A DNA stretch of 62,317 nucleotides from an uncultured Candidatus Saccharibacteria bacterium (GCA_964392285.1 CAYMOW010000003.1:1-62317), one strand, 5' to 3'; counted from the stretch's first letter, positions 17,446 through 39,761 are shown. Made by a program: numbers and translations. Notes: generated by a model from the letters alone, not told the origin.

Positions 17446-17484
17446 CGATTATACACTTTTCCGCGGCCGCGGATTTTTGTATAA
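17446..17484. repeat. 39-bp exact dispersed repeat containing the 14-bp palindrome TCCGCGGCCGCGGA (copy 1)
   Basis: The sequence cgattatacacttttccgcggccgcggatttttgtataa is identical to 18699-18737. It lies 10 nt downstream of the CYTH gene stop. Confidence 0.95.
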
Positions 17485-17493
17485 TCAAAAAAA

Positions 17494-22497: not shown

Positions 22498-24693
22498 TTA
22501 GGGGTTTCTGCCAGCCTCGATCTCCTTTATATAGTATTCGCCTTGTTCTTTAAATGACGGGTCGAGCCGGATAATCTCTCTGATAGCCACGACGGCTTCG
22601 CTTCGGCGATTGGCTTGCAAATAAGCGGCGGCCAAGGTAATCCGATGCTGGTTGTTGTTTGGGTCGAGAGCAATCCTCTGTTTGGCAATCTCGATAATTT
22701 CGTCGACCCGACCAGCCATAAGCAAGACCGTTACCAGACGATCATCAAAAATAAGTTTTTCGGTCGGCACGTCGCTAAAGATCTGGTCGGCCAACTGCCG
22801 TTCACCGCCGGCAATTGCGGTTAGGCCGTAAATAAATTTGGCCTCAAAAAAGTTTGGTTCGAGCTCATAAGCTTTTTGGGCGTAAGGGATAGCCTCTTTG
22901 GCCCGACCTTGCGAGATGAGTGCCCCAACCAATTCGAAATACATACTTTGTTTGTTGGGCGAAAGTTCAAGCGCCCGAGCAAAAACCGGTTCGGCTTCGG
23001 TCACCTGACCAAAGCCAGACAAAAACAATCCATAGAAAAGTTGGTAGCGCGCATCGTTCGGTGCGATCGCCAACTGCTTTTTGAAAGAGCTGTCGATAAG
23101 AGAGAAGAGTTCGCCTTTCATCTCGGCCGAAACATTTGGATTGGCATTTAGAGTCACAACCGCTCGCGAGAGATGTTCTAGGGCTTCAGAGAAGCCGGTC
23201 CCATTCTTGGCTAGAGGTTTCTTGTAATCTTCAACCGTGCCGACCTGGCCTTGCGAATTGAGGGCAAGGATACTCATCAGTCGGCGGTTCTGAAGATAGG
23301 GTCCAATAACAGCAAAGTACAAGATCGCAACGGCCAAGATAACGGCAATGGATTCATAAATCGGACGCGAATTTTCGCGGTTAAAGATGAAAGAGAGCTT
23401 GTTCGAAAATCTTTGCCAGAGACCAGGTGCGTTGTCGGACGAATGAGCATGACCGTAGGCCAAAAGTGTAAAGAACAAAATGTAGCTCGAGATTTGATCG
23501 AAAACGAAAAGATTATGGAAGAGGTAGGCACCAAGCAAACCAAAGATCACCGCTTTGTCGCCCTTGGTTAGAAAGTCATCATTGGCTTTGACCACCGAAT
23601 AAAGCAGAGCGACAAGAATCGAGAGATAAGCGAGTAGCCCAACGAAACCACCAGCCACCAACCAATCAAGAAAGGCGTTGTGAGTTCGGTCGAACCACGG
23701 CTCTTGGGTATACATTCGCGAATCATAATTTTTGTTGAAAACATAGTTAAAGCCTTCTTGACCCCACCCAAAAATCGGCCGTTCCAGAGCGCCGCGCCAA
23801 GCCATCGGCCAGACGAAATACCGACCCTGAGTTTTGATCTCCGAAAAAGAGAGCGAGGCAAAGCGACTCAAAACCGGACTTTTCTGCACAAAACCCGAAT
23901 CGCGCACCGCAAGAAAACCAGAGAAGAGAATCAACAGACCGACCGCCCCAGCCAAAGCGACTTTGCGAATTTTGTCGCCCTTTTCGGATTTGAGAGTGAG
24001 GTAAGCAAACGAGATAAAGGCGCCTCCCAAAAGTCCGAGGACAGAACCTCGAGTTGCGGTAAAGTAGAGCACCACCAGATTTGCGAGGCCGACAAGCGCC
24101 AGCAAGATTCTTTGCCAACCTTGGCGATAGCGCATAAACAAAAGTCCGGCAAAGAAAATATGGAAAACCATATAGATACCGAGATAGGAAGCGTTACCGA
24201 GAGTGCCATCGACTCGCACCCCACCTTGGTTGATGGTTATCTTGCCGGCCAACTGAAAGAACGAATAGATAGCCATAATCGCGCTCGCACCAAGCGAAGT
24301 TGCAAGAAGTGAGTTCCACATCGACTGGCTTTTGAACATTGTGCCCAAAACCAAAAAGTAAGCGGAGAGATAAAGAAGAGTGATGTAGCCCTCCATTCTT
24401 TCGAAGTTGCTCCAAAAAGCCTTGAAAGAATTTTCTGCCAAAATAGTCGAAACCGCCAAACCGAGCAAGAAGACCGAGAGAGCGCCCAAGATATGCGAAT
24501 ACTTGGGCCGATATTCAGAATTGCGTAAAGCCAAGATGCTAAAAGCCAGCACTACCACCGTCACTATAGCCCGGAAGAAAAAGGCCTTGCCGGTAATAAA
24601 GGGAAAGAAAAGCGATTCAGCCACAATAAGCGACGTAAATGGCACCAGAAACAGACCTATATATATAATGTATCTCAACGCTTTGTCGGACAT
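22498..24693 (-). CDS. O-antigen ligase/polymerase-like (Wzy_C-type) polytopic membrane protein with C-terminal TPR repeats
   Basis: The 731-aa product has about 12 hydrophobic segments, including the TATRGSVLGLLGGAF block. The C-terminal 250 aa or so carries repeated 34-aa TPR-like units (AxxxYxxALELxPN...). Confidence 0.7.
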   Translation of the reverse strand: MSDKALRYIIYIGLFLVPFTSLIVAESLFFPFITGKAFFFRAIVTVVVLAFSILALRNSEYRPKYSHILGALSVFLLGLAVSTILAENSFKAFWSNFERMEGYITLLYLSAYFLVLGTMFKSQSMWNSLLATSLGASAIMAIYSFFQLAGKITINQGGVRVDGTLGNASYLGIYMVFHIFFAGLLFMRYRQGWQRILLALVGLANLVVLYFTATRGSVLGLLGGAFISFAYLTLKSEKGDKIRKVALAGAVGLLILFSGFLAVRDSGFVQKSPVLSRFASLSFSEIKTQGRYFVWPMAWRGALERPIFGWGQEGFNYVFNKNYDSRMYTQEPWFDRTHNAFLDWLVAGGFVGLLAYLSILVALLYSVVKANDDFLTKGDKAVIFGLLGAYLFHNLFVFDQISSYILFFTLLAYGHAHSSDNAPGLWQRFSNKLSFIFNRENSRPIYESIAVILAVAILYFAVIGPYLQNRRLMSILALNSQGQVGTVEDYKKPLAKNGTGFSEALEHLSRAVVTLNANPNVSAEMKGELFSLIDSSFKKQLAIAPNDARYQLFYGLFLSGFGQVTEAEPVFARALELSPNKQSMYFELVGALISQGRAKEAIPYAQKAYELEPNFFEAKFIYGLTAIAGGERQLADQIFSDVPTEKLIFDDRLVTVLLMAGRVDEIIEIAKQRIALDPNNNQHRITLAAAYLQANRRSEAVVAIREIIRLDPSFKEQGEYYIKEIEAGRNP

Positions 24694-24761
24694 AGAGCCC
24701 AGTATAGCAAAAAGCCAAAATTCTTGCTATCATTTCCATATTCTCACATTTTCGTATTTTT

Positions 24762-25604
24762 TTGTTGACCTTTTCTTTATTTCGTATATTTATGCTAGTC
24801 ATTCGTCCCCAAAAAACCTTTAGTCTACGCGACCTCAAAGAACTCTGGTATTTCAGAGAGCTCCTTTATTTTTTCACTTGGCGCGACCTCAAAGTGCGCT
24901 ACAAGCAAACCGCCATTGGTGTCCTTTGGGCCGTTCTTCAACCATTCATCACAATGGTTGTCTTTAGCATCTTCTTCGGCAAGTTGGCCGGGCTACCATC
25001 GGACGGTGTGCCCTATCCGATCTTTGTTTATACCGGCCTGCTTTTCTGGCAATTTTTCTCGAGCGCCCTTTCGGACACGGCGACCTCGCTCATCAGCAAC
25101 CAATCAATCATCACCAAAGTTTATTTTCCCCGATTGCTTCTGCCAGTCTCATCTGTTGTCACCAAGTTCCTTGATTTTCTGCTTTCGGCTTTGATCTTGG
25201 TCGCTATGATGTTCTTTTACGGCTACACCCCGTATTTGCAAGGCTTGTTCATTTTGCCCCTACTGCTCGTCATCACCTTTATGGCTTCGAGCGGGCTAGG
25301 ACTCTTTCTTTCGGCTCTCAATGTTAAATATCGCGACGTGCGCTATGCCCTACCCTTCTTTATCCAAATTCTGCTTTTTGTCACTCCTGTCATTTACCCC
25401 GCTTCGATTGCTGGCAAATATTCTTGGCTCCTGGCGCTCAATCCAATGACCGGCGTGGTGCAAACCGCGCGCGCCACCCTACTCGGCGCGACCGAAATCA
25501 ATTGGCTACTTTTGGGTATTTCGTTCGCCACCTGCTTGGTCTTGCTTGTCATCGGAATAATTTACTTCAAAAAGATCGAGAAATATTTCGCCGACATTAT
25601 ATAA
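24762..25604 (+). CDS. ABC-2 type polysaccharide/teichoic-acid export permease (Wzm/TagG-like)
   Basis: LWYFRELLYFFTWRDLKVRYKQTAIGVLWAVLQPF is the hallmark N-terminal motif. Six hydrophobic segments are present. The more likely start is ATG 24792 (MLVIRPQK...). Confidence 0.85.
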   Translation: MLTFSLFRIFMLVIRPQKTFSLRDLKELWYFRELLYFFTWRDLKVRYKQTAIGVLWAVLQPFITMVVFSIFFGKLAGLPSDGVPYPIFVYTGLLFWQFFSSALSDTATSLISNQSIITKVYFPRLLLPVSSVVTKFLDFLLSALILVAMMFFYGYTPYLQGLFILPLLLVITFMASSGLGLFLSALNVKYRDVRYALPFFIQILLFVTPVIYPASIAGKYSWLLALNPMTGVVQTARATLLGATEINWLLLGISFATCLVLLVIGIIYFKKIEKYFADII

Positions 25605-25613
25605 ACGAAAATT

Positions 25614-26906
25614 ATGCGAAACGATACGAAAAACAACGAAAATAACAAGCCGATAATCGAAGTGCGGAACATCGGCAAGAAGTATGACATCGCGCATATG
25701 CGCGGTGGCTATGTGGCGCTTCGCGATGTGATTGCAAATATCGTGCGCAGTCCATTTTCCTTCCTCAAAGACAAAGCCGAGCGCGCTGTCGGCCTCAAGA
25801 AAAAAGAAGAATTTTGGGCCCTCAAAGATGTTTCCTTCAATATCAACCAGGGCGAAGTCGTCGGCATCATCGGCGCAAACGGCGCCGGCAAATCAACCTT
25901 GCTCAAAATCCTTTCGCAAATCACTCCGCCAACCGAGGGCGAAATAGTTTTGCGCGGTCGGGTCGGCTCGCTCCTTGAAGTCGGCACCGGCTTCCATCCG
26001 GAACTCACGGGCCGAGAAAATATTTTTCTCAACGGCGCAATCTTGGGTATGAAGAAACGCGAGATTGAGAAAAAGTTTGACGAGATCGTCGAATTCGCCG
26101 GCATCGGCAAATTCCTCGACACGCCGGTCAAGAGATACTCGAGCGGTATGTATGTGCGCCTGGCCTTTGCCGTCGCCGCCCATATGGACCCAGACATCCT
26201 CCTGATCGACGAGGTGCTCGCCGTCGGCGACGCTGAATTCCAAAAGAAGTGTCTCGGCAAAATGGACGACATCACCAAACGCGAAGGCCGCACCATCCTC
26301 TTCGTGAGTCATAATCTTACAGCCATAAAACAATTATGTGTAAAAACAATCGTATTGCAGAATGGAAAAATTGTTTTCGAAGGTGACACAGAAAAAGCGC
26401 TGGAGATTTACAGACAAACATCCAATCAAATGGTGAGTATTGGATCAAACACAAAAAGACGAGGAGATAAAAAAATAATATTAGAATCTTTTCATTTAGA
26501 AGATGCCGATGGTCGAATCGTGAATAGTATTGAAAATGGTTCTGATGTAAAATTTGTTTTTTCCTATTCGTGCAGCGAACCACAGGAAATAAAAGAGGTC
26601 GACATGGGTTTTTCTATACACAAAAACGATGTTATGGTTTGTAAAATATATAACTCATACCTCGGACAAAAAATAACGAATATAAAAAATAGTGGAAGAT
26701 TTGAATTCAACATAAAAGAACTACCCATAGCCTTTGGAAGATATGCCGTTCAAGCCAGAGTACTTGCAAACGGCATTGAGGCTGATTGGCCACAAAGCTA
26801 TATTGGTTCTTTCGATGTATTGGGAAGTAGGTTTTACAAACAAAACAATTTGACCACTGATCCAGAACTAACTCTTATACCAAACGGTTATTGGACTCAA
26901 GGCTAA
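25614..26906 (+). CDS. ABC exporter ATPase (Wzt/TagH-like) with a C-terminal extension of about 180 aa, a possible glycan-binding domain
   Basis: Motifs: Walker A GANGAGKST, signature YSSGMYVRLAF, Walker B LLIDEVLAVGD, H-loop FVSHN. A beta-rich tail follows. Composition switches from GC-rich to AT-rich at about 26310, inside this gene. Confidence 0.9.
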   Translation: MRNDTKNNENNKPIIEVRNIGKKYDIAHMRGGYVALRDVIANIVRSPFSFLKDKAERAVGLKKKEEFWALKDVSFNINQGEVVGIIGANGAGKSTLLKILSQITPPTEGEIVLRGRVGSLLEVGTGFHPELTGRENIFLNGAILGMKKREIEKKFDEIVEFAGIGKFLDTPVKRYSSGMYVRLAFAVAAHMDPDILLIDEVLAVGDAEFQKKCLGKMDDITKREGRTILFVSHNLTAIKQLCVKTIVLQNGKIVFEGDTEKALEIYRQTSNQMVSIGSNTKRRGDKKIILESFHLEDADGRIVNSIENGSDVKFVFSYSCSEPQEIKEVDMGFSIHKNDVMVCKIYNSYLGQKITNIKNSGRFEFNIKELPIAFGRYAVQARVLANGIEADWPQSYIGSFDVLGSRFYKQNNLTTDPELTLIPNGYWTQG

Positions 26907-26913
26907 CTAGATT

Positions 26914-27768
26914 ATGTTAAAGAAAATAATAAAAAACATAACTCCACCACTACTGTACATAGCACTCAGAAATTTTATTAATAGAAAAAACTATAGACCG
27001 ACTTGGAGCCGGTTCAATTTCGAACCATTAAACGGTATTAACATATTCTTTGATCCAAATGGCTCATGGCAACGGAAGATGCTATCCGGTCAATACGACC
27101 CATATCTATTCGAATCTCTTAAATCAATCGATACGCAAGGTAAAATAATTTTTGACATAGGATCCCATATAGGATTTCATTCACTTTTATTTGCTCGATT
27201 AACAGGAGAAAAAGGAAAGGTCTATGCTTTTGAACCAAACAAAGTCAACGTTGAAAGAATTAAATTGATCTTGAACAAAAACCAAGATGTTTCGAAAATT
27301 GTAAGAGTTCATACCATAGCCATCTCCAACAAGGTCGGCTATGAAGATTTTGTCTTGAATAACGACATTGAAAGTGGTAGGAGTTCTGGAAATTTCATAA
27401 AAGGTGCAGATACTTTTTGGGAAAAAGAAACTTATTACAAAAAAGGATTCTTTTCCGACAAAGTCGAAACTATTTCTCTAGACCAACTAGATAGTGTGTT
27501 AGGAATAAAAGACCTACCCGACATCATGAAAATTGATGTAGAGGGAGCCGAGTACATGGTCCTACTTGGAGCTGAAAGGCTAATAAGTAATAAAAAACCT
27601 ATTATTTTTATAGAGGTGCACTCAATATTAAACATGTTTAACGTGCTGATTTATTTGCAATCCAAAAATTACTCAGTGAAAATAATTAATGCAGAGTCTA
27701 GTGGTCCTTGTTTTATAGAAGCAAAACCAATAAACAAAGATGAAAATTCACATAACCACAATATTTGA
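26914..27768 (+). CDS. FkbM-family SAM-dependent methyltransferase
   Basis: The pattern is FDIGSHIGFHSLLFARLTGEKGKVYAFEPNKVN ... IMKIDVEGAEYMVLLGA, the FkbM pattern. Confidence 0.8.
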   Translation: MLKKIIKNITPPLLYIALRNFINRKNYRPTWSRFNFEPLNGINIFFDPNGSWQRKMLSGQYDPYLFESLKSIDTQGKIIFDIGSHIGFHSLLFARLTGEKGKVYAFEPNKVNVERIKLILNKNQDVSKIVRVHTIAISNKVGYEDFVLNNDIESGRSSGNFIKGADTFWEKETYYKKGFFSDKVETISLDQLDSVLGIKDLPDIMKIDVEGAEYMVLLGAERLISNKKPIIFIEVHSILNMFNVLIYLQSKNYSVKIINAESSGPCFIEAKPINKDENSHNHNI

Positions 27769-28681
27769 CAAAAACTATCTTGTAAGAGCTTTGGCTTTCA
27801 GAGAATCTCTTTACAGATATGCACCAGAGGCGAATGTTTACATGTTGTGCCTTGATTTGGAAACATACACAATATTAGAAGAAATGGCTTTAGAAAAAAC
27901 AAAAATATTCAAAGCCGAGGATTTGGGAGACACAGAGCTTATGGAGGTAAAATCAGTTCGGACCTTACCAGAATTTGCGTCAACCTGCAAACCAGCCTTT
28001 TTAAAACATGTCTTTAATTTAGAGGTAGTTAGCAATGACGACTTATTGGCATTTATAGACCCAGATATTCTTTTCTATCACAACACAGAACACGTATTCA
28101 ATCAAATTTTCAATTCAGGATCTATAACAATCACACCCCATAGATTTCCTGCCCAAAGAGACAATGAAAAATACAAAAAAGGAACCTACAACGCTGGTAT
28201 GATTTTTTTTAGAAAAGACAATAATACCAGAATATGTATCGAGGAGTGGAGAAAACAATGCATAGATTGGTGTTATATAAGATACGAGGACGGAAAGATT
28301 GGAGATCAAGGTTATTTGACAGAATGGCCAAAAAAATATGCTGGAGTATTTATTTTAGAGAATAAAGGTGTAAACCTTGGCTCTTGGAATATAGAAAACT
28401 ATAAGATCAAATATAGAAACAACGAATTTTTAATAGATGATGAAATTCTAATCTGCTACCACTTTCATGGACTTAAAATATACCTCGATAATAAAAATTA
28501 TGTCAGGATCTTACCCGTCACAATTCTCCATGAAAAAATATATGAAATCTACAGAGAAAAACTTGATTTAGCTTACAAAAAAATAATTGCTCTAAAATAT
28601 TCTTGGGTGTATGGTTTTATAAAACATCCCGGGTTCATCAGAATAATAAAACAGAAAATCTTTAAATTATTGCGCCTATAA
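27740..28681 (+). CDS. GT-A fold nucleotide-diphospho-sugar glycosyltransferase (GT8-like)
   Basis: It reads IHITTIFDKNYLVRALAFRESL..., has the DxD-like FIDPDILFY, and NAGMIFFRK. It overlaps the upstream gene by 29 nt. Confidence 0.5.
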   Translation: MKIHITTIFDKNYLVRALAFRESLYRYAPEANVYMLCLDLETYTILEEMALEKTKIFKAEDLGDTELMEVKSVRTLPEFASTCKPAFLKHVFNLEVVSNDDLLAFIDPDILFYHNTEHVFNQIFNSGSITITPHRFPAQRDNEKYKKGTYNAGMIFFRKDNNTRICIEEWRKQCIDWCYIRYEDGKIGDQGYLTEWPKKYAGVFILENKGVNLGSWNIENYKIKYRNNEFLIDDEILICYHFHGLKIYLDNKNYVRILPVTILHEKIYEIYREKLDLAYKKIIALKYSWVYGFIKHPGFIRIIKQKIFKLLRL

Positions 28682-30781
28682 TTTGGGTCGTCTTTTATCA
28701 AAGTATAGATTTACAAGATTGCCAAGTTCGACAGCTTTCATGGCACTACAAGCCACCTTACCAGAAAATACTTGCCAATAACCAGGCAATAATTCGTTTA
28801 CAATCGACGGTCGAGTATCTGTTGAATCTCTTCTAGGCAAAACTATTCTAGTCGTATACATCGAAGATACGTGGGTACAATCATCCAGACCAGACATCCA
28901 TTTACCCCATTTTACCTTGTATTTTTCAAACCTCTCTTTTCTCCTTCTTGGTTCATCGTAATATCTTCTATCAAAATTAAATTTTGGAAACTTTCCGATA
29001 CTTCTCTCCAAAACAGACAACTCAACATCATAAAATAAATATTCATCCGAATAACCAAAGGGCATGACACCAAAGAAGGCACCATCTATTATCGACCAAC
29101 CAGCCCCACTCCAGTTGGTTTTGACAACAGGGACCTCACAAAGTTCATATTGAAATTCATCCAACGGCAATCCTAGCATATCATTAATAAAATTTATTCC
29201 GGCATAAGTAGCATTTATAAGCACCTCAGACTCCACAACCCCACCTTTTTCGCCACATTTGTAAGAAATCTTATAAATATCGCCCTTTCTAGTTATGCCA
29301 TTTACTTCTGTATTTAAATACAGAGAAATATTTTTTGCTTGATTTATTTTTTTAATCAAAAAATCTCTTTCCCTATTTGCATCAAAAATATTTTCCGGGA
29401 CATTAACACTAAGTGATAACATTTCCCTGTTTAAACCAAAACCCTCAGGCCAAGATTCCTTATAAGGCAAATTCATTCTCTTACAAAATTCAATGAATTC
29501 ATTCTTACTTGTTTTACTTCCCTCTCTAGCCACCAAATAATAGTTATCAATTTCCCTTATTACTGATTTACCAAAATAATCCTCAAATGGTTTTTTGGCC
29601 TCCAAACTTTCACAAACAGTTCTTTCGTCTCTTGGGTAATGGTAACCCATATGAACTCGACATTGATTAACCAAAGACGCTTCGCTTATTATGTCGTCAT
29701 TCTTTTCAAAAATATTGACCTTATAGCCACATCGAGCAATATTGAGAGCCGACAGAACCCCAAATATACCGCCACCTATTACCGTCACAGTCTTATTTGC
29801 ATTATGTAGTCCAAGCTCATTAATAGATACGACCATTTTTGCAACATCAGTGTATCTTTCCAATGTCAAAATCTCTGACGACGTCCCCCCATTCAATCTA
29901 AAATACTCAAGATTAAGCCTAATCATTTGTTCTAAAATATCCTCCTTAAATTCCATTTTTTTGTTTTTTGTTGAGATAAAAGGATATTCCAAAAAACCAT
30001 CATCACCAATTATCCCCGCAAGATCGGCAAAAAAGTCCGGCTCTGTGCTTTCGTGCAAATGTATTCTGATACTATCTTTTTTTAAACCAGCTTTTAATTC
30101 AGATACCGCCTTTATTGCAACGGCACCACTAAAAAATAATTCCAATCTAATGTCTGAATTCTCGTTAAATCTAAAAGTTGTCTGGCAATTTATTAAGTCA
30201 AGATCAAATAAAATTTGGATAATATGTGGCAAAAAGGCTGTTATGGGGCTATAAACTTTAAGCCTCGAATCATCAAAATTCCTAGAAAAGTTTAGTTCCA
30301 CACTCTTTATATTTTCTCTGTTTTTATCTATAAAATTTTTTGTTGATTTTATTAATGCAGAATAATGCCATTGGGATGCAACCGCAATCTTGAGATTATA
30401 TTTCTTCTTTAAATTTTGTATTTTTAACAGTTCATCTGATTTGAGAGCAATCGGTTTTGGTAAAATAAAACTTCTACCACCTATAGCGATTAAATTTTCC
30501 AAAACACTCAATAAATTTATCTGATGGACACAAATATCAAAAATTTCTTCTCCATTTGAAGATCCAAAAAAATTTTTGTAATCGTGGGGTGATTTAAAAT
30601 ATGGCACCAACTTTAGATATTCACTGTCCGATTTTGTTGGACTTATCAATGCCCTTATCTCTACATCAGGAAATTTAATATATTTTCTGGCTGCAAGCGA
30701 TCCATATACTCCACCTCCAACAATAACAATTTTAATCATCAGACTAAATATACCACACAAAGTATTGGAGTCAAAAATCAC
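28676..30781 (-). CDS. Fusion protein: N-terminal Gfo/Idh/MocA-like NAD(P) oxidoreductase plus C-terminal FAD-dependent (DAO-superfamily) oxidoreductase
   Basis: There are two Rossmann motifs: KIVIVGGGVYGSLAARKY at the N-terminus and VTVIGGGIFGVLSALNIARCGYKVNIFEKN at about residue 335. FILPKP resembles the EKP motif. The C-half block VNQCRVHMGYHYPRD parallels INQYRLHRGFHYPRS of the 47520-48566 product. Confidence 0.65.
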   Translation of the reverse strand: MIFDSNTLCGIFSLMIKIVIVGGGVYGSLAARKYIKFPDVEIRALISPTKSDSEYLKLVPYFKSPHDYKNFFGSSNGEEIFDICVHQINLLSVLENLIAIGGRSFILPKPIALKSDELLKIQNLKKKYNLKIAVASQWHYSALIKSTKNFIDKNRENIKSVELNFSRNFDDSRLKVYSPITAFLPHIIQILFDLDLINCQTTFRFNENSDIRLELFFSGAVAIKAVSELKAGLKKDSIRIHLHESTEPDFFADLAGIIGDDGFLEYPFISTKNKKMEFKEDILEQMIRLNLEYFRLNGGTSSEILTLERYTDVAKMVVSINELGLHNANKTVTVIGGGIFGVLSALNIARCGYKVNIFEKNDDIISEASLVNQCRVHMGYHYPRDERTVCESLEAKKPFEDYFGKSVIREIDNYYLVAREGSKTSKNEFIEFCKRMNLPYKESWPEGFGLNREMLSLSVNVPENIFDANRERDFLIKKINQAKNISLYLNTEVNGITRKGDIYKISYKCGEKGGVVESEVLINATYAGINFINDMLGLPLDEFQYELCEVPVVKTNWSGAGWSIIDGAFFGVMPFGYSDEYLFYDVELSVLERSIGKFPKFNFDRRYYDEPRRRKERFEKYKVKWGKWMSGLDDCTHVSSMYTTRIVLPRRDSTDTRPSIVNELLPGYWQVFSGKVACSAMKAVELGNLVNLYFDKRRPKL

Positions 30782-30804
30782 ACAGGGGGGTCTTTTGTGT
30801 TATA

Positions 30805-31851
30805 GTGTTAGAATTCAAATTCATGAGAAATTTAGACAAAATAAAAACCTTTGATACTCCAATATTATTTGTCGTATTCAATCGTCCAAATATTACACAG
30901 AGAGTATTTGATGAGATAAGAAAAATTAGACCTTCCAAACTTTACGTAGCCGCAGATGGCCCAAGAAACAATAATGTGAACGACGAAAAAAATTGTGCCT
31001 TGACTCGCAAAATCTTTGATGATATAGACTGGCCCTGTGAAATTTATACCCTATACCAAGAAAAAAATCTGGGTTGTAAATATGCAGTCACAGCGGCATT
31101 TGATTGGTTCTTCAATAATGTAGAGGAAGGAATAATACTTGAGGATGATGATTTACCAGATCAGACATTTTTTCAATTTTGCCAAGAGATGTTGAAGGAG
31201 TACAGAAACGACCCCAGAATAATGCATATTTCCGGCGTCAATTTTCAAGGTAACAATAGAGAACTTAAGCTTAATGATAGTTATTACTTTTCGCGAATCC
31301 CCCACATTTGGGGCTGGGCCTCCTGGAGAAGGGCTTGGCAATTAAATAGTGTAGAAGTGGAAAAATGGCCTGAAATGAGGGGACAGAGAAGTCTTAGCAA
31401 AATATTTAAAGACCCAGCCATAGCTTTCTTCTGGGGTAAGAAATTTCAAAAATACTACGAGGGCAAAATAAACAGCTATGATGGGCAATGGGTATTCACT
31501 TGTCTGAAGTATGGTGGTTTGTGTATAAATCCAGTTACAAATTTGGTTTCCAATATTGGCTTTGGTGCCAATTCAACACACACATCAAGCCGGAGTGATT
31601 TTGCAAACCTGCCAACATCCAGTATTAAATTCCCACTGAAGCATCCAGAAAAAGTTGAGGTTAATGAAATAGCAGACAATTTTACACACAAATACGCCTT
31701 CGATATAAATAAAACTTTGAACCAAAAAATAAAATGGTTTTTAAAATTTTATTTCACAAAACCATACCTATTAGCAAAAAAATATTTCTATAAATTACTA
31801 CTTAAAAAGAACATTTATGATGACACATATCTTTTATCCTTCTTTAACTAG
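30805..31851 (+). CDS. GT-A fold glycosyltransferase (GT2/GnT-I-like, EDD motif)
   Basis: It reads PILFVVFNRPNITQRVFDEIRKIRPSKLYVAADGPR ... GIILEDDDLPDQTFF. The track start is GTG 30805; ATG 30823 (MRNLDK...) is an alternative. Confidence 0.55.
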   Translation: MLEFKFMRNLDKIKTFDTPILFVVFNRPNITQRVFDEIRKIRPSKLYVAADGPRNNNVNDEKNCALTRKIFDDIDWPCEIYTLYQEKNLGCKYAVTAAFDWFFNNVEEGIILEDDDLPDQTFFQFCQEMLKEYRNDPRIMHISGVNFQGNNRELKLNDSYYFSRIPHIWGWASWRRAWQLNSVEVEKWPEMRGQRSLSKIFKDPAIAFFWGKKFQKYYEGKINSYDGQWVFTCLKYGGLCINPVTNLVSNIGFGANSTHTSSRSDFANLPTSSIKFPLKHPEKVEVNEIADNFTHKYAFDINKTLNQKIKWFLKFYFTKPYLLAKKYFYKLLLKKNIYDDTYLLSFFN

Positions 31852-32694
31852 CGCAATGGAAACTAAAACTTTTTTGAATCTTCGCAATACATGATACTTG
31901 ATAGCTGCCAAAAATTTATCTAGTTTATTTATCAAAAAACCAGTCATGGGATCAAATTTTTCTTTACCAAAGAAGTAAATTATACTTTTCAATACCGACT
32001 TCTCTGTTTTGTCTATGTATTTCAAAAGAGGTAACAATAGATTACCCTTTCCTCCGGCAAAATGAATAAAACTTGATTCTTCATACATTTTTATAACCTT
32101 TGATAACCCCTGACCATGGGTAGCCCTATACGGAAACACCATTACATTGAATTCCGGAGGTAAGTAGACCCCTTCACGGTCATTAATCAAATGGTAAGAA
32201 AGAGGACCATTCTCTCGACATCCTTGCTCAGGATAATCATTGAAAACTTTTTCCAACAGGGGTTTATACGTTTTCCTGATTACAAAGGACCCCGTGTTCA
32301 CTACAAAATTAGGTCTATTTTCTTTTGGGCAACAATCATACAGTGCTGGTTCAGTCTTGGTGAGGTAGTCAAAATTATATGGATTATTATTGACAATACC
32401 CCAAGGTTTGTCACCAACAATCAAAAACGGATCTTTTGCATGTTTTGTAGCAAAAATATCTGCGTCTAAAAAGAACGCCCAGTTATATTTAGCAATTCTT
32501 GGATGATCAAACATTAATAATTTTTGCCACGAGGCATGCTTACCCCGAGGACCAATCCAATCGTCTACAATAACCAATTCTGCACCAATTTTGTTGGCAT
32601 AATTATCAATACTATCACCAAATCTCTTTTTAAAAATATTTAGATACTTTTGACCGATGGCCACAATCACAACGACTTTTTTTTCTTCTGTCAT
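31834..32694 (-). CDS. Putative GT-A nucleotide-sugar transferase (GT8/GT34-like)
   Basis: The 286-aa product reads VVIVAIGQKYLNIF... and has the DxD motif FLDADIF. It sits among other GT genes. Confidence 0.45.
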   Translation of the reverse strand: MTEEKKVVVIVAIGQKYLNIFKKRFGDSIDNYANKIGAELVIVDDWIGPRGKHASWQKLLMFDHPRIAKYNWAFFLDADIFATKHAKDPFLIVGDKPWGIVNNNPYNFDYLTKTEPALYDCCPKENRPNFVVNTGSFVIRKTYKPLLEKVFNDYPEQGCRENGPLSYHLINDREGVYLPPEFNVMVFPYRATHGQGLSKVIKMYEESSFIHFAGGKGNLLLPLLKYIDKTEKSVLKSIIYFFGKEKFDPMTGFLINKLDKFLAAIKYHVLRRFKKVLVSIALVKEG

Positions 32695-32710
32695 ACGATT
32701 TATTTATAGA

Positions 32711-33742
32711 TTAATATAAGGTTGTCCATAATTTCATGGCTTTTTTCTGCTGCTTCCAATAAACGTCGTTCAAATTCAATTTATGAGCCAGCTCATAATA
32801 ACAATCCTTGAATGTTTTTGATGTTAGTCTAACTTCATCAACTTTTTGCCATAGATATTCATTCACCCTTAAACCAGTTTTTTCTTTCTTAATATTTGTC
32901 AAAGGGTTGCTTGCCCTATCGTGCCAAATAATGGGATCTCCAGAGGATATCCCAAATCCTAAATGATCCGAGATCTTTTTCAAAAAAATACCACACCAAA
33001 TATCTCCAAACCTATCGTAACCCCAATGTCTACCATTTTTATCTTGCCCCATGAGCAAAAAGAACATAGCCGGAGTCACCTCTTTTTTCCACGCTATATT
33101 CATACCACACATAGGAAAAAATTTTCCCATAGAAAATCTTTGCTGTATAGCATAGCCCTTAAGGCCGCTAGTTTTCTTAGCTTTTAACTGTGTCGTACCA
33201 TCAAAATCCGGAACATTGTACCAAAGACCGTGATTCAACACTGTGTTCTCAATAACATTTTTTTTAAAGTTTTTGTAAGGTATACCACGCGGTCTGAAAT
33301 CACTTATTGTACTGATCCACATAGATTCAACTTTACTTTTTGTATTATACAAAGCATTCCAATGCATATTAATCAAACTACTCCTTATGTCTTTCAAGTA
33401 ATGTGCCAGAGGATAACAATCATCATCGAGGGTTATTATCATATCTGGATTCATTTTGTAAGCTTTGAAGTACCCATAACTTCTAACACAATCTGTTCTT
33501 CGTGGAATGATCCACGATTTTTTACCTAAATCTTTTTCTATATCTTCCCAAGAATAATGAGTAACTTCTGATTTTTTATAGAGCAATTTAAATGTCTTGG
33601 TGGGGTTATCTTCTACCAAAATAAGATGCACATTAAAATTTTTATTACCAAAAAATTCCCTCTGCCATTCCTGCAAAAATCTTTTTATGGATTGTTCACG
33701 AATAGTCGGAACCACAATAACAACCTTTTTTTTCTTGGCCAT
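32711..33742 (-). CDS. Reversibly glycosylated polypeptide (RGP) / GT75 family protein, a UDP-arabinopyranose-mutase-like enzyme
   Basis: Blocks are collinear with plant RGP1 as I remember it:
- VVIVVPTIREQSIKRFLQEW
- ITLDDDCYP (plant IDDDCF)
- RGIPY (RGYPF)
- NHGLWYNVPDFDGTTQL (SHGLWLNIPDYDAPTQL)
- FPMCGMNIAWKKEVTPAMFFLLMG ([25 protein letters not shown])
- DRFGDIWCGIFLKKISDHLGFGISSGDPIIWHDRASNP (DDMWAGWCxKVICDHLxLGVKTGLPYIxHSKASNP). Confidence 0.8.
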   Translation of the reverse strand: MAKKKKVVIVVPTIREQSIKRFLQEWQREFFGNKNFNVHLILVEDNPTKTFKLLYKKSEVTHYSWEDIEKDLGKKSWIIPRRTDCVRSYGYFKAYKMNPDMIITLDDDCYPLAHYLKDIRSSLINMHWNALYNTKSKVESMWISTISDFRPRGIPYKNFKKNVIENTVLNHGLWYNVPDFDGTTQLKAKKTSGLKGYAIQQRFSMGKFFPMCGMNIAWKKEVTPAMFFLLMGQDKNGRHWGYDRFGDIWCGIFLKKISDHLGFGISSGDPIIWHDRASNPLTNIKKEKTGLRVNEYLWQKVDEVRLTSKTFKDCYYELAHKLNLNDVYWKQQKKAMKLWTTLY

Positions 33743-33757
33743 ATTTTATAAGTACTA

Positions 33758-34684
33758 TTATTTATAATTTTTGATCAAATTAATACCTGTTTTTATATCT
33801 ATCTTTGGTTGCCAACCCAATAAAGATCTGGCCTTGCCTATATCAGCTAGAGCATGTTTTGGTTCTAATCTTTTTGCTATATATTTCTTCTTCCCACCAA
33901 TAATAGACGCTATCTCGTTTACAGATGTATTCACACCAGAACCTATATTGATAATTTCACCATTTCCTACTTTTTTGGATTTTAAAGCTCGCATATTGGC
34001 ATCTACTACGTCACTGACATATATAAAATCTCTGGTTTGCCTCCCCGATCCAGTTATGGTCATTGGTTTTTTATTTTTGCTCTGATTAATAAATTTGGCT
34101 ATCAACATGGCATAATTCCCGTTAGGGTCTTGCCCTAAACCATAAACATTAAAATATCGCAAAGAAACAGTCTTTATACCATACACTTTACTATAAGTCT
34201 TACAAGCCTGTTCGCCAAAATATTTTTGTAATGCATAAGGACTTTTTGGGGCAGGAGACATTTCCTCTCTTAGAGGAAGTTCATCCTGATCTCCATACAC
34301 AGAACATGAGGCTGAATAGATGAATTTTCTGGCTTTATATTTTACTGATAAAATCAGGATGTTGTGTATACCATCTACATTTACTTCATGACTCTCAAGT
34401 GGATTATCAATTGAAAATTGAACCATAGGAATCGCAGCACAATGGAATACAGCGTATATACTAGAAATTGATCTAAAAACCTTATCAACCTTATTCATAT
34501 CTCTTATATCTACAGCATGGACAATAGCACCAGTGGGAATATTCTCTTTTTTGCCAGTAAAGAAATTATCAACTATATGCACTTCAAAACCTTTTTCAAT
34601 CAAGCGTCTGGATAGATGTGACCCTATAAAACCAGCTCCACCGGTCACAATTATTTTACGTTTTTTTTCTTGCGTCTTAGACAT
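33758..34684 (-). CDS. NAD-dependent SDR nucleotide-sugar 4-epimerase/dehydratase (GalE/UXS-like)
   Basis: It has KIIVTGGAGFIGSHLSRRLIEKGFEVHIVDNFFTGKKENI and the catalytic SPYALQK (YxxxK). It lies directly upstream of the RGP gene. Confidence 0.85.
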   Translation of the reverse strand: MSKTQEKKRKIIVTGGAGFIGSHLSRRLIEKGFEVHIVDNFFTGKKENIPTGAIVHAVDIRDMNKVDKVFRSISSIYAVFHCAAIPMVQFSIDNPLESHEVNVDGIHNILILSVKYKARKFIYSASCSVYGDQDELPLREEMSPAPKSPYALQKYFGEQACKTYSKVYGIKTVSLRYFNVYGLGQDPNGNYAMLIAKFINQSKNKKPMTITGSGRQTRDFIYVSDVVDANMRALKSKKVGNGEIINIGSGVNTSVNEIASIIGGKKKYIAKRLEPKHALADIGKARSLLGWQPKIDIKTGINLIKNYK

Positions 34685-34706
34685 AAATTACAAACTGTTA
34701 ATAACA

Positions 34707-35240
34707 TTACTTAATAAAGTGCTCTACTATTGGGATATGGCCTTTTACAATATTGGAAGGAAGGTTCGATATTGGGAAAAATTTTTCGTTTTCATTTTCT
34801 CTAAACTCCCCTAGAATATTAGTCGTAAATACTAAGGAAAGTTCATAACCTCTTTTCGATTGACCATCACCATCACCCTGTAATCTTTCAAACCATTTAT
34901 AAAAAATAGGCTTATCCACTTCCACCATTATCTCTTTTTCTAAGACTCTTCTGAGGGTGTCCTGGATACACTCCAATGGTAAATGAACACATCCAGGAAT
35001 ATGCCATCCATCAAAAAACTTGTCTTTGCGATATATTAGTAATATTTCCGGCCCGTTTCCAATATCTCTGAATACCGCCACTTCGGCACAAACGATACCA
35101 AAAGTTTTACACCAAGCCTCAAATACCGGTAAAGGCACCGGGAATTTTAACTTGTGCATCAACCTGACTAATTCAAATTGTTCTTCTTCTGTTAAAGACA
35201 TCATATTTATAAATACAAGTCTACATATTAGAACAACCAC
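34707..35240 (-). CDS. Putative Nudix-family hydrolase
   Basis: A Nudix-box-like stretch GCVHLPLECIQDTLRRVLEKEIMV is present (Gx5Ex7R..LEKE). The real start is probably the internal MMSLTEEEQ. Confidence 0.45.
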   Translation of the reverse strand: MVVLICRLVFINMMSLTEEEQFELVRLMHKLKFPVPLPVFEAWCKTFGIVCAEVAVFRDIGNGPEILLIYRKDKFFDGWHIPGCVHLPLECIQDTLRRVLEKEIMVEVDKPIFYKWFERLQGDGDGQSKRGYELSLVFTTNILGEFRENENEKFFPISNLPSNIVKGHIPIVEHFIK

Positions 35241-35300
35241 TGATTCTAATCAAATTAATTCTTATTGAAATCTTTACTATTTCTGTTAGTATCTCAAACG

Positions 35301-35346
35301 GAGTGGCCCTGTTGCGTTTACTCGCAAGGGGCCACTCTCTTTTTGA
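35301..35346 (+). terminator. Strong terminator-like hairpin plus T-run in a divergent spacer, 31 nt upstream of the FkbM gene
   Basis: The hairpin is gagtggccc-tg-ttgcg-tttact-cgcaa-g-gggccactc, followed by tctctttttg. No upstream + strand gene exists for it to terminate. Confidence 0.5.
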
Positions 35347-35376
35347 ATGCAGAGAAATTGGTGTTAATATTGGATT

Positions 35377-36072
35377 ATGAATCCCCTACGCAAACTGATA
35401 CAAAAGACTGGTTTTGATTTGCACCGTTATAAGTCAGAAATAGACCGGGGCAAAATTTGGCGAAGTTTGAATATTCAGACTATTTTAGACATCGGCGCCA
35501 ACACCGGCCAGTTTGCCAGCTCCATACGTCAGGCCCTGCCGGAGGCTCAAATATACTCGTTCGAGCCTCTAAAGAGCTGTTTTGAGAGCCTGGTAGCCTC
35601 GCGCGCCGGGGATGCCAAATTCAAGGCTTTTAACTACGCTTTGGGCGATCGGAGTGAGGAAATAGAGATACACAAAAGTGCCTACTCCCCCAGCTCCTCG
35701 ATCCTTGAAATGTCGCAAACTCATAAAGAGCTTTTTCCTCACACCCAAGAGCACACGAGCGAAAAGATACAAATCAAGCGATTGGATGAAGTGGCCCAGA
35801 ATTTAAATTTGGCCAAAGAAATTTTGATCAAGGTGGATGTGCAAGGTTTTGAGCACAAAGTTTTGGCCGGCGGATTACAAACCTTTAGCTTGGCCAAAGC
35901 GGTCATTATGGAAGTGTCTTTTGTAAAACTTTACGAGGGTCAGCCGAGTTTTGATGAGCTTTATACTAATCTCAAAAATCTCGGTTTTGAATACAGGGGT
36001 TCGCTTGAACAAAAAAACGACAAGCATTCTGGCGCCGTTATTTCTGAAGATTCACTATTTATAAAATACTAA
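35377..36072 (+). CDS. FkbM-family SAM-dependent methyltransferase
   Basis: It reads ILDIGANTGQFASSIRQALPEAQIYSFEPLKSCFESL ... LIKVDVQGFEHKVLAGG. Confidence 0.8.
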   Translation: MNPLRKLIQKTGFDLHRYKSEIDRGKIWRSLNIQTILDIGANTGQFASSIRQALPEAQIYSFEPLKSCFESLVASRAGDAKFKAFNYALGDRSEEIEIHKSAYSPSSSILEMSQTHKELFPHTQEHTSEKIQIKRLDEVAQNLNLAKEILIKVDVQGFEHKVLAGGLQTFSLAKAVIMEVSFVKLYEGQPSFDELYTNLKNLGFEYRGSLEQKNDKHSGAVISEDSLFIKY

Positions 36073-36096
36073 AATTATGCGAAAAGCCACGAAAAG

Positions 36097-37179
36097 TTAC
36101 GAAAATACTTTTAGAATTTGATCCGCAAGAACTTTTGGGGTGAATTTTTCTTGAAAAATCTTACGGCCATTCTCGCCCAATTTGCTCAATAAATCAGGGT
36201 TGTTTTTTAGATAAAGAATCTTATCGGCCAAATCTTGCGGGTCGGCCGGGTTTGCAAACATCACCTCTTCAGCCTCTTTTAGTATTTCTGCCACTGGTTC
36301 GGTCCGGGCCGTAATATAAGGCAGACCCAGGGCCAAGGACTCAAAACACTTATGAGGTATGGTGCGCGAGAGGCGTTCGTGCTTTTCGAATTGGCCCAAA
36401 GAGATGTGGCAAGAGAGCATCATCTTTCGCAAATCTTCATTTGACAAATTTTCTGTAATTAATTCCAAATTCTTCAACCCTAATTCTTGATTCATAATTC
36501 TTAATTCTTTCTCCAGCCAACCATTGCCAATAATCAAAAAATTTACCCCCTTTTCTTCCAAAATTTTGGCCGATTTTATAATATGCTTCATTCCGGCTTC
36601 AGGTAAAAACTTGCCTCGAAACAGAGCTGTAAACTTTTCTCTTTTTTTTATCTCTGGTTCAACAAAGAACACTGAGTCATCAGCGCCGGTATAGACAACC
36701 TTGTATTTTGGACTTTGGCCAAATTGCTCTACAAAATATTTTCTTTGGGCCTCACTCTCGACCAGCACAATATCAGCACACTTTACTGCCAGCCAATCAA
36801 TGAATTTGATATACCAAGCTTTCAAACCCCAAAATCCCCTGTTTTGCCTAGAGAGCACCACCCCTTCATACATTGTGCATAGCGCATCAAAAACAACTAT
36901 CTTTGAGGACAGAAGTTTAGCGAACCAAACGACCGAATGGCTAGGATAGCCGACTACCAAAGCATCGTATTTGCCTGACAAATTTTTGTGTTTGCGGAAA
37001 AGCTCAACATACTTTTGTAGACCCGGTGCCAGACTCTGGCACTCCAGAATTTCAACCCCAAGCTGTCTTAGGCCTTGGGTATAGATTCTAGACCGGCCCC
37101 AACTTGAATTGTATGTGCCGAACCAACAGATACGAAATAACGAATTTTTTAACGAATGGCCACGAATAGAGTTATTCAT
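36097..37179 (-). CDS. Glycosyltransferase family 4 (GT-B, group 1)
   Basis: The 360-aa product has a C-terminal GT1-type block: LGQFEKHERLSRTIPHKCFESLALGLPYITART. There is an 8-nt overlap between its start and the upstream GT-C gene's end. Confidence 0.75.
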   Translation of the reverse strand: MNNSIRGHSLKNSLFRICWFGTYNSSWGRSRIYTQGLRQLGVEILECQSLAPGLQKYVELFRKHKNLSGKYDALVVGYPSHSVVWFAKLLSSKIVVFDALCTMYEGVVLSRQNRGFWGLKAWYIKFIDWLAVKCADIVLVESEAQRKYFVEQFGQSPKYKVVYTGADDSVFFVEPEIKKREKFTALFRGKFLPEAGMKHIIKSAKILEEKGVNFLIIGNGWLEKELRIMNQELGLKNLELITENLSNEDLRKMMLSCHISLGQFEKHERLSRTIPHKCFESLALGLPYITARTEPVAEILKEAEEVMFANPADPQDLADKILYLKNNPDLLSKLGENGRKIFQEKFTPKVLADQILKVFS

Positions 37180-38860
37180 TACATTTAAATATTTTAGTCG
37201 TTATATATCGATCATTTTTTTCATATATATTTTTGCAGGAGCTAAGGTATTTGGAATAGAAATTATTCTCATCGATCCTAGGAATATCTATGTAGAGAAT
37301 ATGGCCTGAAAAATCTTTGAAGAAATCTCGATAAGTGCTTTCAAATTGTGGGGTGGCATAGAGCCGCCTTGCATATTTACCTGTTTTTTGGATTTCGTAA
37401 CCACCGATATCATTGTAGACCACCACCTTTTCGATTTCTTCATGCTCTGCTATATACGCTTCGCTACTCGCAAAAAGCCGATAGGGACTGCCGTTGATCT
37501 TGCCCCAAAGATACTCTTCGATAAAAACTCCGTTATAGAGTAGCCCAAGGACAAGAATTGACACCAAAGACCCTCTTTTGAATTCCGCTTTTCTCATCGC
37601 CCAAAAAGCAAAGACGAGCGAACAAATCCAAATGGTAGCGATAAAAGCAAAGGAAACATAAAAGCCGGTCGGCCCCGAACCGCCAGTGAAGGGAAAAAGA
37701 AAATTCCATTTCAAAGACAGAGCGCGCTCCAGCCATTCAGTTTTTGGATAATGCGGCGGCACAAAGTGGTTAAAAAATTGCAGAGAAAAAATTACGATAG
37801 CAAAAATTACCGGTATCACCACCTCACCCCAAGAAAACTCCGTTTTCTTTCCCCCCTCCTTGACAAGGAGAGGGGCCGGGGGTGAGGTCTGTGCAAACAG
37901 CGCGCCAACCAAAACAACCAGGGGTAGAATTAGAAACTGAAAATATCTATCAAGGGCGCCGGAAGAAAAGTCGAAAGCCACAAGATAAAAGAACAGACCA
38001 ACGATTATAAAAAGGATAAACGGGCGATACCTCGATATCATCTCTCTTTGCAAAAAAAGTATAGGTAGCACCAAAAGCGGCGACAGATACATAATCGATT
38101 TGGCCAACTGAATCATAGTTTGCAACCAACCCCTACCACCAAACCTAACGAAGTGCTCCCAATATTTAAGCGAGGCTTCCAATTTGAAAAAGGGAAAGAG
38201 TAGTTTCGCAAGCAAGAGCAACAAACCCAAAAAAACTGCCCCACTCAACGCATAGGCGAAATACTTCAATATTTTTCTGCGATCCGAAAAAACATTCTTT
38301 TCAAAAGCAAAGTCGAGAGCTAAGGCCGCAATAGCTATAACAAAGCTCGCTTTTACAAAAAAGCCTGCTACTGCCCCAACCACCAAAATTACAAACCACG
38401 CCCAATTCTTACTAAGCTCAAAGCCCTTAGCTCTTAGCTTGAAGTGCCCAATACACATAATCAAGAAAAATGTCGGCATTATTGCCCCATCGGTATCAAC
38501 CATTAGCGAAGCGAGGACAGAATAGAAAGAGACAGCAAAAAAGAATACCGACCAAAGTGCGCTTTTCTTGTCCCCCACCATTTTGGCGAGATAAAAAAGC
38601 AAAACCATATTCAAAAAAGAAAAGGCGAGCGGAATAATTCTAAAATTGTCGTAACCAACCAGTGCGCCCAGCTCTCGATAAATAAACTCGCCAACTGGTG
38701 GGTGTGGTATACCGCCCGGCTCGGTTAGCGCTGGATTTACAATAATCGGCCATTTGTATTCGTCCTGGTGATAGAGATTATCAATCCCATCTACACGCAA
38801 GACAAAAAAGAGCACCAGGACCCCCAACCCAATCAAAATATCTTTTTTAGTCCAACTCAT
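37172..38860 (-). CDS. GT-C fold membrane glycosyltransferase (GT39/ArnT/PMT-like)
   Basis: The 562-aa product has about 12 TM segments. An acidic DE motif sits in the first loop (NLYHQDEYKW). It carries repeat copy B in a loop (QTSPPAPLLVKEGGK). Confidence 0.5.
   Translation of the reverse strand: MSWTKKDILIGLGVLVLFFVLRVDGIDNLYHQDEYKWPIIVNPALTEPGGIPHPPVGEFIYRELGALVGYDNFRIIPLAFSFLNMVLLFYLAKMVGDKKSALWSVFFFAVSFYSVLASLMVDTDGAIMPTFFLIMCIGHFKLRAKGFELSKNWAWFVILVVGAVAGFFVKASFVIAIAALALDFAFEKNVFSDRRKILKYFAYALSGAVFLGLLLLLAKLLFPFFKLEASLKYWEHFVRFGGRGWLQTMIQLAKSIMYLSPLLVLPILFLQREMISRYRPFILFIIVGLFFYLVAFDFSSGALDRYFQFLILPLVVLVGALFAQTSPPAPLLVKEGGKKTEFSWGEVVIPVIFAIVIFSLQFFNHFVPPHYPKTEWLERALSLKWNFLFPFTGGSGPTGFYVSFAFIATIWICSLVFAFWAMRKAEFKRGSLVSILVLGLLYNGVFIEEYLWGKINGSPYRLFASSEAYIAEHEEIEKVVVYNDIGGYEIQKTGKYARRLYATPQFESTYRDFFKDFSGHILYIDIPRIDENNFYSKYLSSCKNIYEKNDRYITTKIFKCNE
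37844..37888. repeat. Palindromic mini-element, copy B, inside the GT-C gene
   Basis: The sequence is tttctttcccccctccttgacaaggagaggggccgggggtgaggt. An inverted copy of the tail (acctcacccc) lies at 37821-37830. Confidence 0.8.
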
Positions 38861-38955
38861 TACCTTTCAGATTACCACAAAGCTTACCGTGACTAAAATT
38901 TGTCTTTTCTCTTTCTGTGTGTTAAAGTCTGCGCCAGAAAGGTAGGTGATTCGAA

Positions 38956-39618: not shown

Positions 39619-39703
39619 CGGAAACAATTTGACCTTTTTGAATGGCTCGTGAGGTTCTGCGTCGCAGAACTAAACGAGCCATTTTCGTTTTCTTTATTTT
39701 GTA

Positions 39704-39758
39704 TTTCTCCCCTCTCCTCTTACAAGGAGAGGGGTCGAGCAAAGCGAGGGGGTGAGGT
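39704..39758. repeat. Palindromic mini-element, copy C, intergenic between convergent genes
   Basis: The sequence is tttctcccctctcctcttacaaggagaggggtcgagcaaagcgagggggtgaggt. It is the same element with about 10 extra nt (agcaaagcga) before the GGGGTGAGGT tail. Confidence 0.8.
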
Positions 39759-39761
39759 AGC

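Follow-up and report, generated by a model that had tools for sequence, protein, structure and literature searches.

Evidence for a replaceable glycan cassette with one joint inside wzt in an uncultured Candidatus Saccharibacteria bacterium

The window analyzed here is a 62,317-nucleotide (nt) contig from an uncultured Candidatus Saccharibacteria bacterium (GCA_964392285.1, CAYMOW010000003.1:1-62317; contig C3 of its genome), and it carries a Wzm/Wzt-type glycan export locus whose segment 26399-35354 is, in our judgment with good confidence, a replaceable "glycotype" cassette. This cassette appears to be exchanged between conserved flanks, with the carbohydrate-binding domain (CBD) of the ABC transporter protein Wzt inherited together with the glycan enzymes. 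The host is a candidate phyla radiation (CPR)-type bacterium with a 0.68-Mb genome (682,503 bp on 21 contigs, 98.85% complete, GC content 0.439 with a standard deviation of 0.047 across 1-kb windows), and it is probably without an outer membrane or lipopolysaccharide (LPS). The locus is the sole one of its type, as a second wzm/wzt system was not found in the genome. We compared the window with the public metagenome runs X1, X2, X3, X4, X5, X11, X23, and X26, of which X1 is the source run (SRR15237813; its independent k-mer assembly is available as Logan contigs), X2 and X3 are other wastewater metagenomes, and X11 and X26 are runs from other studies. Further comparisons were made between the genome of the window (G000), two congeneric species (G001 and G002), and a metagenome locus (L028).

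Strain-level replacement

The flanks of the cassette are common to closely related strains that carry unlike DNA between them. Strains in X2 (65-85x depth) and X3 match the window at 97-99% identity on the left, from at least 24000 as far as 26398, and on the right beginning at 35355; over 26416-35235 their depth is zero. Past 26398 and 35355 the X2 and X3 contigs extend into unlike DNA, over stretches of at least 616 nt and at least 1212 nt, and these loose ends are identical in the two runs; one X2 contig matches 26157-26398 and then diverges from the window, as do contigs of X3 and X4. The replaced segment is therefore placed at 26399-35354 (8,956 bp), from the positions at which homology ends. 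Its right joint lies 22 bp before the start codon of an FkbM methyltransferase gene (FkbM2), directly after a hairpin. An earlier reading made from the sequence alone had proposed that cassettes are exchanged here, that the conserved ATPase core of wzt serves as one homology arm, and that the C-terminal domain moves with the cassette; the population data agree on both points, the left end of homology falling inside the part of wzt that codes for the nucleotide-binding domain (NBD). A step in GC content at 26311 lies 88 bp from this end, also within the NBD-coding part, and the nesting of that step inside strain-shared DNA implies at least two successive exchange events at the locus.

The remaining window served as a control and is mostly common to the window strain and X2, at 96-99% identity. 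Blocks unshared with X2 were found at approximately 0.7-5.7 kb, 38.94-39.58 kb, and 45.5-48.7 kb, so the genome is a mosaic, and no unshared block of the window is larger than the wzt cassette. At an identity threshold of at least 90%, both 700-5700 and 15700-17500 are unshared with X2, and strain-variable sequence makes up about 29% of the 62-kb window. The block at 38941-39581 is a GC-rich region with a DUF218-like open reading frame (ORF; GC at third codon positions, GC3, up to 0.91) that is missing in X2 and X3, whose contigs stop at 38941 and restart at 39581. The block at about 45500-48700 is a second low-GC block, absent from the approximately 98%-identical X2 strain, and contains a split paralogue (47529-48560, 32% amino acid (aa) identity) of a fused oxidoreductase of the cassette. 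Within a glycosyltransferase (GT) gene of family GT4 to the right of the cassette, 36472-36514 is indel-rich with respect to X2, and a word of 29-31 nt at 36481-36509 reaches a depth above 2000 in X3; this word is common to abundant other organisms or to a repeat.

The cassette carried by the major strain of X2 and X3 is of neither the G001 nor the G002 type, as contigs compared with both cassettes matched neither. A G001-like cassette occurs in X3 and X5, only in a minor population of 4-6x. Words of 30 nt from the loose ends were absent from all compared loci and from the genome.

Composition of the block and its boundaries

GC along the window is 0.45-0.50 on either side of the cassette and 0.32-0.36 between 26 and 35 kb. 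Within wzt, the maximum-likelihood change point in GC is base 26311 (2-log-unit support 26291-26328), with GC 0.529 to its left and 0.344 to its right. GC3 in wzt is 0.68 through codon 231 and 0.27 beyond it, a step with a log-likelihood ratio (LLR) of 36.8 against a maximum of 9.9 in 5000 codon permutations (p<2e-4); of the genome's 395 ORFs with a length of at least 200 aa, only one has a larger internal GC3 step. On the right, the composition changes at 35299 (support 35260-35494; LLR 14.9 versus a permutation maximum of 8.4). The sequence-only reading had put a sharp drop near 26310, immediately after the H-loop of the ATPase, and a return at about 35300-35380; both discontinuities are significant against permutations, and the left one sits in the H-loop FVSHN itself (F230-N234), the codon of His233 being 26310-26312.

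Between 26311 and 35354 the block has a GC of 0.341, compared with 0.46 on its left side and 0.428 on its right side, and it is the second-longest low-GC run of the genome. Its GC-normalised tetranucleotide profile (r=0.57) makes it the least genome-like 9-kb fragment; for the 148 others, r averages 0.91 and is never lower than 0.58. In its composition, the block is foreign to this genome. The strong hairpin described earlier at the right edge is likewise present (35300-35338, 16-bp stem, dG -31.2 kcal/mol, z -5.5); it is followed by UCUUUUU on the + strand, and no further copies were found elsewhere in the genome. The hairpin with its T-run (35300-35347) faces the + strand yet sits between divergent genes (Nudix on -, FkbM2 on +), and it may be an insulator of FkbM2 or a relic of a former cassette end.

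Gene content of the locus

Gene families were assigned by Pfam and NCBIfam profile searches, and the features of the locus are as follows.

24762-25604, + strand: wzm, ABC-2 permease, conserved left arm (Pfam ABC2_membrane PF01061, E 1.3e-18)
25614-26906, + strand: wzt, whole gene (ABC_tran and Wzt_C)
25614-26310, + strand: 5' part of wzt, GC-rich NBD up to the H-loop, GC3 0.68, left arm (Pfam ABC_tran PF00005, E 7e-26)
26311-26398, + strand: NBD-coding tail of 88 bp, low-GC yet shared with strains carrying other cassettes, with at most 1 difference (contigs of X2, X3, X4)
26399-35354, no strand: strain-specific replaceable block, 8,956 bp, GC 0.34 (Wzt linker, CBD, and eight glycan genes)
26451-26780, + strand: Wzt_C carbohydrate-binding domain, residues 280-389 (PF14524, 44.8 bits versus a cut-off of 30.4; aligns to the CBD of 8DKU)
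26914-27768, + strand: FkbM-family methyltransferase, FkbM1 (Methyltransf_21, E 2.3e-24; TIGR01444)
27740-28681, + strand: putative glycosyltransferase of 313 aa with a DPD motif (homologues about 50% identical in aa sequence in the cassettes of G002 and L028)
28676-30781, - strand: fused GFO_IDH_MocA-like and FAD (DAO) oxidoreductase, 701 aa (Pfam)
30805-31851, + strand: predicted GT13 (GnT-I)-like glycosyltransferase of GT-A fold with an EDDD motif (AlphaFold and Foldseek)
31834-32694, - strand: putative glycosyltransferase of 286 aa with a DAD motif (homologues in G002 and L028)
32711-33742, - strand: RGP/GT75-family protein, UDP-arabinopyranose-mutase-like (Pfam RGP, E 8.5e-46)
33758-34684, - strand: short-chain dehydrogenase/reductase (SDR) nucleotide-sugar 4-epimerase-like enzyme (Pfam Epimerase, E 2.4e-63; GalE-like, under the equivalog cut-off)
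34707-35240, - strand: Nudix hydrolase (Pfam NUDIX, 25.1 bits versus a cut-off of 21.1)
35300-35347, + strand: terminator-like hairpin and T-run on the cassette side of the right joint (X2 homology restarts at 35355)
35355-37179, no strand: strain-level right arm with native-like GC (FkbM2 and GT4), common to the X2 and X3 strains, not G001
35377-36072, + strand: FkbM2, second FkbM methyltransferase, right arm
36097-37179, - strand: GT4, right arm
37172-38860, - strand: PMT_2/GT-C membrane glycosyltransferase, family-wide right anchor (58% aa identity to G001)

The wzm gene ends 9 bp upstream of wzt, is 80-85% identical at the nucleotide level in the congeners and 98-99% in the X2 and X3 strains, and has secA and a gene for a ligase-like Wzy_C-TPR protein as its left neighbours. 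The best match of Wzt in the PDB is Wzt of Aquifex aeolicus (8DKU, E 2e-66), followed by TarH/TagH, and alignment to NBD-only constructs of the A. aeolicus protein places the end of the NBD near residue 267. An exact-protein look-up found Wzt only in the source run and returned no record for the 280-aa reading of wzm.

Every gene inside the block is a glycan gene, with spacing of -29 to +23 bp. From their sequences these genes are predicted to provide two or three glycosyltransferases and a nucleotide-sugar module made up of the fused oxidoreductase, RGP, epimerase, and Nudix proteins, and FkbM1 is a candidate maker of a chain-end cap. Much of the content assigned earlier from the sequence alone is supported by the profile searches, namely Wzt_C, FkbM, the GFO_IDH_MocA and DAO fusion, RGP, Epimerase, and NUDIX. 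The three enzymes proposed to be of GT-A type had no Pfam match (E up to 10) and no NCBIfam match. One of them, the product of 30805-31851, is upheld by a structural model: an AlphaFold prediction from a four-sequence alignment (pLDDT 62; N-terminal half 70-90) matches GnT-I and POMGnT1 (1FO9 and 5GGF; GT13) in Foldseek with E 4e-8, which suggests a GT13-like GT-A glycosyltransferase. The other two have only DxD motifs and no family match.

Alternative cassettes in other species

The gene order secA-wzy-wzm-wzt(NBD) is common to G001 and G002 at 80-87% nt identity, and homology to the window ends at 26376 in G001 and 26398 in G002. Up to the H-loop the Wzt NBD is 90-93% identical in aa sequence to both species, and identity then declines along the protein: from 91% before the H-loop to 53% over the 30 residues that follow and 20% in the CBD for G001, and from 93% to 67% and 43% for G002. 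Behind the same wzm-wzt(NBD) the two congeners carry different gene sets; these are alternative cassettes of the kind that the sequence-only reading had suggested looking for in relatives. The G001 cassette (GC 0.30-0.38) has an epimerase, a DegT aminotransferase, methyltransferases, GT2, and GT4, and its right side shares only PMT_2 (58% aa identity), with the non-orthologous region reaching 37180, beyond the low-GC block. The G002 cassette combines alcohol dehydrogenase (ADH)/dehydrogenase, thiamine pyrophosphate (TPP)-enzyme, and radical-SAM genes with homologues of the Wzt C-terminal domain (WztC), FkbM, the GT13-like protein, and both unassigned proteins. In four relatives (G001, G004, G021, and G025) the PMT_2 anchor lies 9-24 kb from wzt.

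The L028 locus holds a syntenic related cassette in which the GT13-like protein and FkbM are fused into one protein of 570 aa (10914-12623) directly after wzt. Homologues of FkbM1 and the GT13-like protein are adjacent in G002 and fused in L028, and a related WztC co-occurs in both. The fusion indicates that the two enzymes are functionally linked, a Rosetta-stone case that points to a putative chain-capping enzyme working in two steps; taken with the related CBD, it supports joint inheritance of the reader and the cap-making enzymes. Trees of the two domains are arranged differently, as the NBD groups G000, G001, and G002 (support 97) and the CBD groups G000, G002, and L028 (support 100), with G001 placed elsewhere.

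Recent sharing and possible donors

Divergence between the X11 strain and the source strain is lower in the cassette (18/2614 listed sites, 0.69%) than in the flanks (66/2769, 2.4%). The cassette is thus 3.5-fold less diverged than its flanks (Fisher p=5e-5 on a subset of the counts), and being younger than the flanks it fits transfer or a sweep, not decay in place. In X23, cassette pieces of about 97.5% identity occur with no flanks at 90% identity or above, at a depth of only 2-6x, which hints at the same cassette outside matching flanks.

The nearest matches of the RGP protein in species-representative genomes have 50% aa identity and come from contigs with 30% GC in metagenome-assembled genomes (MAGs) of Melioribacteraceae and Bacteroidetes. 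Such RGP-bearing contigs of Bacteroidota/Ignavibacteriota type were considered as the donor and rejected, as the identity is 50% only and there are no shared neighbours.

Alternative explanations and mechanism of exchange

Several results weigh against an imported, exchanged cassette and are considered together here. Of the alternative cassette of X2, only the contig ends were read, and a search for donor DNA with the block against 400 genomes of the phylum returned only short matches of 68-80%. Similarly, a word-based protein search with the WztC CBD found only its own sequence. At its 3-5x depth, X11 yielded no junction-spanning contig, and approximately unbiased (AU) tests of incongruence between the NBD and CBD trees were not significant (p 0.26 and 0.42). 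The GC3 step also belongs to a wider trend: among 64 complete wzt genes from metagenomes, the NBD-minus-CBD difference in GC3 is mostly positive, with a median of +0.085 and values of at least 0.2 in 10 of the 64, and the value of 0.41 in G000 is among the top three. Two other genes in the genome likewise place a GC-rich conserved domain beside an AT-rich variable domain. Given this family-wide difference and the two similar genes, part of the step may reflect long-term regimes that distinguish conserved from exchangeable modules, not one import.

These trends are the main support for a different history, in which there was no recent import: the block would be a variable module of long residence that became low in GC where it stands, and the strain differences would be ancient balanced polymorphism. 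In this scenario, conserved segments such as the NBD recombine often with relatives and are kept GC-rich by biased gene conversion or selection, and divergent modules, being unable to recombine, drift toward AT. We consider this history unlikely. It draws on the positive GC3 difference in most family members, on the pairing of a GC-rich conserved catalytic domain with an AT-rich variable domain in all of the genome's top three within-gene GC3 steps, and on low-GC runs that make up about 13% of the genome; every cassette seen at the locus is below the genome GC, and the donor was not found among the 400 genomes. However, the composition changes very sharply, over a stretch of about 40 nt, and the GC-normalised oligonucleotide signature of the block is the extreme of the genome. 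The lower divergence of the X11 cassette relative to its flanks is the opposite of what an old, fast-drifting module would give, and even an old polymorphism could go on segregating in 98%-identical strains only through recombination at these same flanks.

The two other stepped genes both adjoin low-GC islands. One, at C12:16154-19501 (- strand), codes for a secreted beta-helix/lipase-like protein of 1115 aa in which GC3 goes from 0.56 to 0.24 at codon 576. The other, at C6:42477-44150 (+ strand), codes for a histidine kinase whose membrane sensor half is AT-rich and whose kinase half is GC-rich, with GC3 rising from 0.31 to 0.59 at codon 274.

An assembly or binning artefact, by which two organisms were joined at conserved ABC ATPase sequence, is very improbable. 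The switch point does lie in a highly conserved ABC ATPase motif region with short words common to many organisms, and depth spikes at 25812-25962 occur in all runs. However, a single Logan contig of X1 (21,141 bp) spans 24000-40000 and crosses both junctions with 0 differences at a flat depth of 16.3, both flanks and cassette are present in X11 and X26 at comparably low depth, and a chimera is therefore very unlikely. An artefact would moreover need two junctions, as the composition is back to native on the far side, and X2, X3, and X4 independently join 26311-26398 to the GC-rich NBD. The junctions are real.

Insertion of a mobile element (an integron cassette, transposon, or phage or integrative and conjugative element (ICE) island) in place of homologous replacement is a similarly slim prospect: the unique strong hairpin at the right edge and copies of a dispersed motif of about 40 bp at 25605-25645 and 36071-36107 speak for it, but Pfam scans found no integrase, transposase, or phage genes in or beside the block, no direct or inverted repeats of at least 9 bp are common to both junctions, the left joint is in frame within a gene and yields an intact chimeric protein, and the copies of the motif sit beyond the strain-level joints and are scattered through the genome.

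The motif itself (ACGAAAATTATGCGAAA..TACGAAA..ACGAAAA) has at least 10 copies in the genome and more in relatives; besides the two sites in the window, copies occur at C4:49356, C4:38023, C5:30183, C10:18124, C20:8891, and C1:38998. At the wzm/wzt junction it provides the ATG of wzt and about 9 extra N-terminal residues, and this copy is present in G002 and not in G001 or in the X2 and X3 strains, whose wzt starts MEKPIIEV. Several other copies abut a start codon on the reverse strand, and the motif may be a promoter or leader element.

Homologous replacement via conserved arms is the best-supported explanation, because mobility genes and shared repeats were not found and because RecA and a ComEC-family gene are present in the genome. 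Through this mechanism, RecA-dependent homologous recombination of taken-up DNA would exchange cassettes, with the conserved wzm-wzt(NBD) serving as the left arm and the FkbM2, GT4, and PMT_2 genes as the right arm. With a left crossover inside the NBD, the cell would retain its own ATPase core, the part that has to dock on its own Wzm, and the CBD would be inherited jointly with the enzymes for building and capping the glycan that it has to recognise. FkbM1 and the GT13-like enzyme would probably form the cap, as a methylated terminal sugar. Elsewhere, recognition of a modified chain end by the Wzt CBD is established (PMC9445017); by analogy, and from the position of FkbM after wzt and the FkbM/GT13-like fusion in L028, export here may depend on a chain-end cap bound by the CBD. 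Phage escape or altered recognition by host cells would be the likely selective driver.

Relation to known systems

Replacement flexible genomic islands ("glycotype", O-chain) of aquatic bacteria hold different gene sets at one locus in near-identical strains; these islands are low in GC, are exchanged via conserved flanks, and are presumed to be driven by phage pressure. The locus described here differs in that one joint lies inside a gene and splits two domains of one protein. Hypervariable cell-surface genes have also been found in lake MAGs (PMC9426551).

A close parallel in layout is the common polysaccharide antigen (CPA) "TET operon" (wzt, the methyltransferase gene wbdD, and the GT gene wbdA) of Pseudomonas syringae, in which a wzt-methyltransferase-GT unit is swapped and wzm is conserved (PMC7820976). 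In both cases the wzm side is conserved and variability starts at wzt, and the Wzt C-terminal domain, methyltransferase, and GTs move as a unit; the tree of the P. syringae unit disagrees with that of the core genome, and no integrase or attC sites accompany it (PMC7820976). Unlike P. syringae, the present host is a 0.68-Mb CPR-type organism for which metagenomes are the only source, the junction could be placed within the NBD-coding part to an accuracy of tens of bases, and the cassette adds a predicted nucleotide-sugar pathway (RGP, epimerase, oxidoreductase, and Nudix).

The arrangement of an NBD and Wzt_C beside Wzm with an adjoining methyltransferase is also that of the Escherichia coli O8/O9a and Klebsiella/Raoultella O antigens and of A. 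aeolicus WzmWzt (8DKU, 7K2T; PMC9445017), and sequence similarity to 8DKU continues through the CBD. The CBD described here is nevertheless only distantly related to those of E. coli, Klebsiella, Raoultella, and Aquifex, and it occurs in a putatively LPS-free host with a Wzy_C/TPR ligase-like gene next door. The phenomenon, a serotype-like cassette swap as in O-antigen loci, is already familiar, and the locus is a well-documented further example of it.

Implications

An ultra-small uncultured bacterium would in this way swap its exported surface glycan by module, as indicated by joints placed at base level and by population evidence from public metagenomes. The module couples the substrate-reading domain of a transporter to substrate-making enzymes, and the CBD with FkbM and the GT13-like protein forms a testable reader/writer pair. 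The locus also lends itself to typing strains of such organisms in wastewater communities. More tentatively, and at somewhat less than even confidence, the end of the Wzt NBD could be a recurrent, quasi-dedicated joint for glycan cassettes in CPR and beyond, the chromosome retaining Wzm and the ATPase core that docks on it and each cassette bringing its own reader CBD and FkbM/GT13-like writer, which some lineages carry as a fusion, with cassettes sweeping between diverged strains faster than their flanks diverge. If this is true, glycan switching would be a main axis of strain identity in obligate episymbionts, with consequences for host attachment and phage escape.

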